From the IMG/VR virus record IMGVR_UViG_2913112809_000002: 64,000 nt of DNA; one strand, written 5' to 3'. Positions 57,601 to 60,600 of the stretch are shown here, piece by piece. Position numbers: made by a program. Position 1 is the first letter of the stretch; the number at the start of each line of letters is the position of its first letter. The DNA comes from a virus (lineage: Duplodnaviria > Heunggongvirae > Uroviricota > Caudoviricetes).

Positions 57601-60600
57601 GGTGCCGGATTCAGAGCTGGATTCGTGGATGGAGTCCCGGATTTATCCGGTGATGAGCGATATCCCGGCACTGTCAGATTTGATCACCAGTATGGTGGCC
57701 AGTGGCTATGACTACCGACGCGACGATGATGCGGGCCTGTGGAGTTCAGCCGATCTGACGTATGTCATTACCTATGAAATGTGAGGACGCTATGCCTGTA
57801 CCAAATCCAACAATGCCGGTGAAAGGTGCCGGGACCACACTGTGGGTTTATAAGGGGAACGGTGACCCTTATGCGAACCCGCTTTCAGACGTTGACTGGT
57901 CGCGTCTGGCAAAAGTTAAAGACCTGACGCCCGGCGAACTGACCGCTGAGTCCTATGACGACAGCTATCTCGATGATGAAGATGCGGACTGGACTGCGAC
58001 CGGGCAGGGGCAGAAATCTGCCGGAGATACCAGCTTCACGCTGGCGTGGATGCCCGGAGAGCAGGGGCAGCAGGCGCTGCTGGCGTGGTTTAATGAAGGT
58101 GATACCCGTGCCTATAAAATCCGCTTTCCGAACGGCACGGTCGATGTGTTCCGTGGCTGGGTCAGCAGTATCGGTAAGGCGGTGACGGCGAAGGAAGTGA
58201 TCACCCGCACGGTGAAGGTCACCAATGTGGGACGCCCGTCGATGGCAGAAGATCGCAGCACGGTAACAGCGGCCACCGGCATGACGGTAACGCCAGCCAG
58301 TGCTTCCGTAGTGAAAGGGCAGAGCACCACGCTGACCGTGGCATTCCAGCCGGAGGGCGCAACCGACAAGAGCTTCCGTGCGGTGTCAGCGGATAAAACA
58401 AAAGCCACCGTGTCGGTCAGTGGTATGACCATCACCGTGAACGGCGTTGCTGCAGGCAAGGTCAACATTCCGGTTGTATCCGGTAATGGTGAGTTTGCTG
58501 CGGTTGCAGAAATCACCGTCACCGCCAGTTAATCCGGAGAGTCAGCGATGTTCCTGAAAACCGAATCATTTGAATATAACGGCGTGACCGTCACGCTTTC
58601 TGAACTGTCAGCCCTGCAGCGTATTGAGCATCTTGCCTGGTTGAAAGAGCAGGAAAAAAAGGCTGAATCCAGTGGCAACCTGCAGGTGTCTGTAGAGGAT
58701 CTTATCAGAGGCGGGGCGTTTCTGGTGGCGATGTCTCTGTGGCATAACCATCCGCAGAAGACAAAGCTGCTGTCCATGAATGAAGCCATTACGCAGATTG
58801 AGCAGGAAGTGCTTACCACCTGGCCCACGGAGGCAATTGCTCAGGCTGAAAACGTGGTGCTACGTCTGTCCGGAATGTCTGAGTTTGTGGTGAATAATGC
58901 CCCTGAACAGGCAGAGGACGCCGGGCCTGCAGAGCCTGTTTCTGCGGGAAAGTGTTCGACGGTGAGCTGAGTTTTGCCCTGAAACTGGCGCGTGAGATGG
59001 GGCGACCCGACTGGCGCGCCATGCTTGCCGGGATGTCATCCACGGAGTATGCCGACTGGCACCGTTTTTACAGTACCCATTATTTTCATGATGTTCTGCT
59101 GGATATGCACTTTTCCGGGCTGACGTACACCGTGCTCAGCCTGTTTTTCAGCGATCCGGAGATGCATCCGCTGGATTTCAGTCTGCTGAATCGGTGTGAG
59201 GCTGACGAAGAGCCTGAAGATGATGTGCTGATGCAGAAAGCGGCAGGGCTTGCCGGAGGCGTCCGCTTTGGTCCGGACGGGAATAAAGTTATCCCCGCTT
59301 CCCCGGATGTGGCGGACATGACGGAGGATGACGTAATGCTGATGACAGTATCAGAAGGGATCGCAGGAGGAGTCCGGTATGGCTGAACCGGTAGGCGATC
59401 TGGTCGTTGATTTAAGTCTGGATGCGGCCAGATTTGACGAGCAGATGGCCAGAGTCAGGCGTCATTTTTCCGGTACGGAAAGTGATGCGAAAAAACAGCG
59501 GCAGTCGTTGAACAGTCGCTGAGCCGACAGGCGCTGGCTGCACAGAAAGCGGGGATTTCCGTCGGGCAGTATAAAGCCGCCATGCGAATGCTGCCTGCAC
59601 AGTTCACCGACGTGGCCACGCAGCTTGCAGGCGGGCAAAGCCCGTGGCTGATCCTGCTGCAACAGGGTGGTCAGGTTAAGGACTCCTTCGGCGGGATGAT
59701 CCCCATGTTCCGGGGGCTTGCCGGTGCGATCACCCTGCCGATGGTCGGGGCCACCTCGCTGGCGGTGGCGACCGGTGCGCTGGCGTATGCCTGGTATCAG
59801 GGTAACTCAACCCTGTCCGATTTCAACAAAACGCTGGTCCTTTCCGGTCATCAGTCAGGTCTGACGGCAGATCGTATGCTGGTCCTGTCCAGAGCCGGAC
59901 AGGCGGCAGGGCTGACGTTTAACCAGACCAGCGAGTCACTCAGCGCACTGGTTAAGGCGGGGGTAAGCGGTGAGGCTCAGATTGCGTCCATCAGCCAGAG
60001 TGTGGCGCGTTTCTCCTCTGCATCCGGTGTGGAGGTGAACAAGGTCGCTGAAGCCTTCGGGAAGCTGACCACAGACCCGACGTCGGGGCTGACGGCGATG
60101 GCACGCCAGTTCCATAACGTGACGGCGGAACAGATTGCGTATGTTGCTCAGTTGCAGCGTTCCGGCGATGAAGCCGGGGCATTGCAGGCGGCGAACGAGG
60201 CCGCAACGAAAGGGTTTGATGACCAGACCCGACGCCTGAAAGAGAACATGGGCACGCTGGAAACCTGGGCAGACAGGACAGCACGGGCATTCAAATCCAT
60301 GTGGGATGCGGTGCTGGATATTGGTCGTCCTGATACCGCTCAGGAGATGCTGATTAAGGCAGAGGCTGCGTTTAAGAAAGCGGACGACATCTGGAATCTG
60401 CGCAAGGATGATTATTTTGTTAACGATGAAGCGCGGGCGCGTTACTGGGATGATCGTGAAAAGGCCCGTCTTGCGCTTGAAGCCGCCCGAAAGAAGGCTG
60501 AACAGCAGAGTCAACAGGACAAAAATGCGCAGCAGCAGAGCGATACCGAAGCGTCACGGCTGAAATATACCGAAGAGGCGCAGAAGGCTTACGAACGACT

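Follow-up and report, generated by a model that had tools for sequence, protein, structure and literature searches.

The tail module and gene H as read in the window

The DNA analysed here, hereafter the window, is a stretch of 64,000 nucleotides that exact-protein look-ups place, at 100% identity, at about 30563-94562 of contig PDHY01000019.1 (GCA_004745255.1). It contains a lambda-type tail module in the gene order V-G-T-H-M-L-K-I-J, an order found both in the window and in its source contig from the ORF list and the Pfam calls. The features around gene H, numbered as in the window, are the following:

58548-58970 and 58952-59386, + strand: tail assembly chaperone genes G and T, respectively (Pfam Phage_TAC_2, Phage_tail_T)
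59379-61939, + strand: real gene H, lambda-type tail length tape-measure protein, 2,562 nt and 853 aa with the missing A restored
59379-59522, + strand: 47-aa ORF, almost surely artefactual (39 true N-terminal residues of H and 8 out-of-frame residues, then a stop), annotated by gene callers on PDHY01000019.1 and on Logan contig SRR6148341_277
59490-59495, + strand: A6 homopolymer run, whose true length in E4742 is A7; very probably a one-base under-call, cause of the apparent frameshift
59582-61939, + strand: 785-aa ORF (783 aa as called), remainder of H and almost surely artefactual like the 47-aa ORF; Pfam TMP_2 and Tape_meas_lam_C

The start codon of H, an ATG at 59379, opens an ORF of 47 codons, which translation follows to a TGA stop at 59520-59522; on the + strand the region reads ...AGT GAT GCG AAA AAA CAG CGG CAG TCG TTG AAC AGT CGC TGA, and its A6 is the sole run of six or more A near the break. 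An earlier note on this DNA had described H as broken, with the run at 59490-59495 and the stop where we find them, and all of this is seen in the sequence. The note's match of the ORF to the N-terminus of lambda gpH is also there, extending over 39 residues (MAEPVG...SDAKK) instead of the 38 it counted, after which the frame is lost. It further had H resuming in another frame from 59582: the change of frame is real, the starting point is not, since the gpH-homologous frame is open and alignable right from the A-run, from about 59493 on (TAAVVEQSLSRQ... / TAAVVEQSLSRQALAAQ...), and 59582 is just the first ATG of this downstream frame; gene callers start at 59588, which gives 783 aa. Adding one A to the run in silico yields a continuous H of 853 aa. 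The seven-base run that the note gave for lambda does stand at the homologous place of NC_001416 (GTGATGCGAAAAAAACAGCGGCAG, 10645 onward).

The lambda-type tape-measure class is that of gpH, defined here by Pfam PF06791 (TMP_2) and PF09718 (Tape_meas_lam_C). Homology places H of the window in this class: the alignment spans the site for 94 reference H ORFs, with 96-100% identity, and the repaired protein sits in a tape-measure cluster of 26,172 members. Lambda gene H (NP_040595.1, 853 aa) has the same placement between T and M and the same length as the repaired H of E4742, the strain from which the window comes; the sequence flanking the run is likewise the same in both, save for the one-base under-call of the window where lambda has A7. 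The E4742 protein is set apart from its nearest relatives in E. coli and phages by ordinary substitutions, with an identity of about 96-98% to the SE11 and IMG/VR homologues. A single ORF of about 853 codons is lacking in the draft window, which has products of 47 and 783 aa, whereas the closed genome of E4742 has it (853 aa).

The draft and the closed genome of E4742

PDHY00000000 is the draft genome of Escherichia cryptic clade II strain E4742, isolated from Hong Kong intertidal sediment (PMC6639607). As stated in the methods and Table 1 of the same paper, it was obtained from flow-based data, namely Ion Torrent only, with single-end reads of 35-400 nt at 50x, assembled with MIRA and SPAdes; the contigs were ordered by reference and the gaps closed manually, and the draft, in 113 contigs, is the most fragmented among 16 genomes (PMC6639607). 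The genome was later closed by PacBio RSII sequencing at 172x and Canu assembly into one contig of 5,120,753 bp (PMC7716201).

Region 49379-64000 of the window aligns with this closed genome (GCA_005781185.1, VATS01000001.1:4080796-4103357) over 14,623 bp, and the sole difference is an extra A at 59490, which makes the run A7; an H of 853 aa lies there between T and M. Four broken genes of the window were also repaired, each by the single base that its relatives suggest, and then looked up by exact protein sequence. The repaired H of 853 aa is found verbatim as QCT89244.1 / TLJ08475.1 / WP_138159156.1 [Escherichia sp. E4742], on the 5,120,753-bp contig, and all four repaired proteins (H, DUF2612, ORF6N and DUF968) are found verbatim in E4742 on that contig. 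The exact 783-aa product of the broken gene was recovered from two assemblies only, the Ion Torrent draft and the one made by Logan from an Ion Torrent run.

This Logan assembly, of run SRR6148341, holds a 13.2-kb contig identical to the window, A6 included. The run very probably represents the same Ion Torrent data as the E4742 draft, so that we did not retain the contig as independent support for a real mutation.

Rarity of the A6 allele

A query of 401 nt across the A-run of H recovered 82 phage records, 81 of which span 402 nt, i.e. have A7; the remaining one, PhiR70_1, is broken elsewhere. A probe of 46 nt, which seeds on the A6 allele only, detected A6 in none of the 82 phage records, and at 4 of the about 4,325 loci homologous to the H site in 5,426 complete E. 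coli genomes; three of these four records were examined, and in all three the neighbouring phage genes are flagged "frameshifted" or incomplete. Exact-pattern scans gave no A6 contig versus at least 120 A7 contigs in IMG/VR, and no A6 versus one A7 among the GTDB representatives. Because it is so sporadic in the phage, E. coli, IMG/VR and GTDB scans, A6 appears from these sequences as an allele that is never transmitted and that stands, where examined, in assemblies with many other frameshifted genes.

A public gene collection has the 47-aa product of H indexed in 438 of its blocks. Among the matches listed, ten Mb-scale contigs with this product (L231-L240) have almost every lambda-like gene fragmented. 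They belong, together with e.g. ESBL 15, ET220 and SC422, to the error-prone long-read assemblies of E. coli, which have undergone the same change from A7 to A6 and display the same 47-aa product. Nearly all the neighbouring genes are fragmented in such assemblies, whereas the window has no other broken head or tail gene, and it is for this reason that the H break looked there like a specific lesion. The under-call of A7 as A6 is thus recurrent at the H run, and seeds the databases with a fake small protein of 47 aa.

In Escherichia phage PhiR70_1 (PV340577.1, locus 4080-6640) H is annotated as two CDSs, of 273 nt and 2,244 nt; the break is at a site other than the A-run, and an IS4 transposase adjoins FI. 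This split H could be a sequencing error or belong to a defective recombinant.

Other run-length errors in the window

A tblastn comparison of the window with ORFs translated from about 240 related loci singled out two sites, and two only, at which dozens of references disagree with it: H, with 94 references, and the 3' end of the DUF2612 gene at about 1545, with 48. Alignment of 27356-64000 with the closed genome revealed nine indels of one base each, every one of them in a base run, and no substitution outside the repeat boundaries in about 36 kb of unique sequence; the differences from this orthogonal assembly are therefore of run length only. Counting H and the T7 at 1538-1544, at least ten homopolymer miscalls are present in 64 kb. 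The sites other than H are the following:

1538-1544, - strand: T7, true T6, in the DUF2612/Phage_Wedge1 baseplate gene of prophage A; last ~25 residues changed, 207 versus 226 aa
29826-29832, - strand: T7, T6 in the closed genome, in a cII-like gene; 91 aa in the draft versus 98 aa
31628-31635, + strand: A8, A7 in the closed genome; end of a 118-aa ORF altered, 125 aa in the closed genome
39505-39511, intergenic: T7, T6 in the closed genome and also in the Logan Ion Torrent contig (L254)
39862-39867, + strand: A6, true A5; ORF6N antirepressor-like gene split into pieces of 70/76 aa and 121 aa, intact in the Logan contig
41657-41658, + strand: GG, true GGG; DUF968 gene split into pieces of 186 aa and 96/136 aa
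43869-43876, intergenic: T8, T7 in the closed genome (closed-genome alignment)
43892-43899, intergenic: A8, A7 in the closed genome (closed-genome alignment)
44931-44932, + strand: CC, CCC in the closed genome, 12 nt inside the Phage_holin_8 gene; spurious 181-aa ORF versus a 131-aa holin

The four broken products (H, DUF2612, ORF6N and DUF968) are private to one assembly. For DUF2612, the 48 references that align at the site disagree with the window, T7 is found in none and T6 in 97 of the IMG/VR contigs, and the repaired protein of 226 aa is QCT85762.1 [E4742]. Repaired ORF6N (185 aa) is WP_441316606.1 [E4742]. As for DUF968, only the repair of GG to GGG exists (329 aa, QCT89218.1 [E4742]), three alternative repairs being absent. 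The holin gene of SE11 measures 393 nt. A reference-free scan of all the homopolymers of the window for corrections that merge ORFs returned mostly ordinary operon gene boundaries.

Homopolymer-length miscalls are the characteristic error of Ion Torrent chemistry: flow sequencing infers the length of a run from the intensity of a signal, so that long runs are miscounted. The differences between draft and closed genome are all of this kind, by one base more or less in runs (A6/A7, T7/T6, A8/A7, T8/T7, G2/G3, C2/C3), with both over- and under-calls, and nothing in them is unusual for the chemistry. The Logan assembly further allows two sources of error to be told apart. It matches the closed genome at 39505 and 39862, and since an assembly of Ion Torrent data is correct there, the errors at these two sites belong to the deposited consensus; it matches the draft at H, so that the A6 of H is an under-call at the level of the reads.

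A contig made of two prophages

The window is collinear with one prophage of the closed genome (prophage A, at ~79-99 kb) up to 39137, and with another (prophage B, at ~4.06-4.10 Mb) from 38318 onward. The two collinear parts overlap only in a repeat, identical in both prophages:

38318-39137, + strand: ~0.82-kb repeat holding a 65-aa ORF, DUF4014 and most of DUF551; site of the draft mis-join (junction zone 38259-39311)

PDHY01000019.1 is, on this collinearity, evidently a chimera of two prophages lying about 1.1 Mb apart and joined via their shared repeat. In the closed genome prophage A runs on to the excisionase (Exc), the integrase and host RND-efflux genes, at ~0.09 Mb. In prophage B the series DUF551-ORF6N-hok-DUF968-RusA-Q is preceded there by an S24 repressor, cro, YdaT and replication genes that belong to B itself; as read, short of its integrase end, this prophage comprises repressor, cro, replication, nin, Q, lysis, head and tail genes.

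We considered a natural deletion or recombination that would have brought the early-left operon of prophage A next to the nin, Q and late genes of prophage B, without integrase. It was rejected on the evidence of the closed genome, where A is followed by Exc, Int and host genes, and where B, ~1.1 Mb away, is equipped with an immunity and replication region of its own. The head-to-head layout without integrase is hence an artefact of the assembly, and with it the structural argument for a defective segment B falls away.

Some other features of the two prophages may be mentioned. Within the nin region of prophage B, at 40500-40655, ORF6N and DUF968 flank an ORF for a type I toxin of the Hok/Gef family (MKQQKAMLIALIVICLTVIVTALVTRKDLCEVRIRTGQTEVAVFTAYEPEE); the order ORF6N-Hok-DUF968 recurs in many lambdoid prophages of E. 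coli. Each prophage also carries, near the Q antiterminator/lysis region, a pair of tRNA genes: Thr(TGT) and Asn(GTT) in prophage A, at 22853-23008 on the - strand; Thr(TGT) and Gly(TCC) in prophage B, at 43475-43628 on the + strand, downstream of Q (42455-43150).

The origin of the H break

Two alternatives had been left open by the earlier note, a homopolymer sequencing error or a defective prophage with a non-functional tail. Resequencing, here by PacBio on E4742, gives A7 and an intact H of 853 aa, as expected from the former. Because the E4742 PacBio genome has both the extra A and the intact gene, we attribute the broken H, with very little doubt, to a homopolymer-length error of Ion Torrent sequencing and not to a mutation. 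The true A7 of H in E4742 would have been called A6 by the flow-based sequencing, and the under-call would shift the frame of H after codon 39, giving rise to the spurious ORFs of 47 aa and 783/785 aa. In the organism H is almost certainly an ordinary, intact lambda-type tape-measure gene of 853 aa, and no head or tail gene of its prophage is broken.

The defective prophage does not stand up to the data: no other head or tail gene is broken, and H is whole in the closed genome. It is true that the split ORF6N, the split DUF968 and the truncated DUF2612 at first seemed to be marks of decay. This reading was given up because every one-base repair exists verbatim in the closed genome of E4742. 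A lesion expected of a pseudogene should be reproducible in independent sequencing of E4742, and the PacBio data, with A7 and an intact H, do not reproduce it. Further decay would show as missing modules, nonsense mutations or IS insertions; all the other breaks of the window are miscalls absent from the closed genome, and prophage B, as read short of its integrase end, has the modules named above.

It might still be argued that A6 is a genuine and recent one-base deletion in the culture sequenced by Ion Torrent, which would inactivate the tape-measure gene and leave the prophage tail-defective. Homopolymer runs are indeed prone to replication slippage, of which they are natural hot spots, and the agreement of the two Ion Torrent-based assemblies on A6 would be expected also if A6 were real. 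However, the closed genome of E4742 has A7, and a genuine deletion would need either that the PacBio genome came from a sub-line without the deletion, or that a compensating error entered its consensus. PacBio/Canu assemblies carry homopolymer errors of their own, and the PacBio call is fallible for any single run; but such an error would have had to add exactly one A at exactly the H run, recreating the universal allele. Besides, at least nine other homopolymer miscalls and no substitutions in 64 kb of the draft draw the pattern of a platform error, not of decay, and the head and tail module shows no further lesion over 20 kb. Altogether, a real deletion seems very improbable. A variant of it is slightly less credible again: E4742 cultures would contain a mixture of A6 and A7, produced by replication slippage and acting as a reversible on/off switch of prophage tail assembly, and the Ion Torrent library would have drawn mostly on A6, the PacBio library mostly on A7.

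A frame change that is probably real does exist close by. The slippery heptamer G GGA AAG at 58946-58952, intact and in the zero frame of G, is presumably a programmed -1 frameshift site, as in lambda G/GT; it is the only genuine frameshift signal near H, and is distinct from the H artefact. The resemblance with lambda G/GT is that of a change of frame in a tail-assembly gene of the same operon, ~540 nt upstream of the H run. The likeness stops there: G/GT has a canonical heptamer in the zero frame, and all the relatives examined show G and T annotated as overlapping genes, whereas the "frameshift" of H has neither of these features and is absent from the organism.

That the A-run would itself be a recoding site, from which full-length H is produced out of A6 by -1 ribosomal frameshifting or transcriptional slippage, can be practically discarded: recoding of such type is known for dnaX and IS elements, the frame of H would be regained by a -1 slip on GCG AAA AAA C, and a real programmed -1 frameshift, on G GGA AAG, lies 540 nt upstream in G/GT, but an arrangement in use should be conserved, while A6 is absent from the 82 phage records, from IMG/VR and from the GTDB representatives, and its four occurrences at the ~4,325 E. 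coli loci are, for the three examined, in assemblies with other frameshifted genes; moreover G AAA AAA C does not, by eye, fit the canonical zero-frame heptamer X XXY YYZ, and E4742 itself has A7, so that the A6 template is absent from the organism.

Any other finding made on this window that rests on a frameshift, on a truncated gene or on the head-to-head layout in "two segments" is suspect. With the break of H attributed to an Ion Torrent under-call, it would have no biological significance, and the tail module of the prophage looks, from its sequence, functional.
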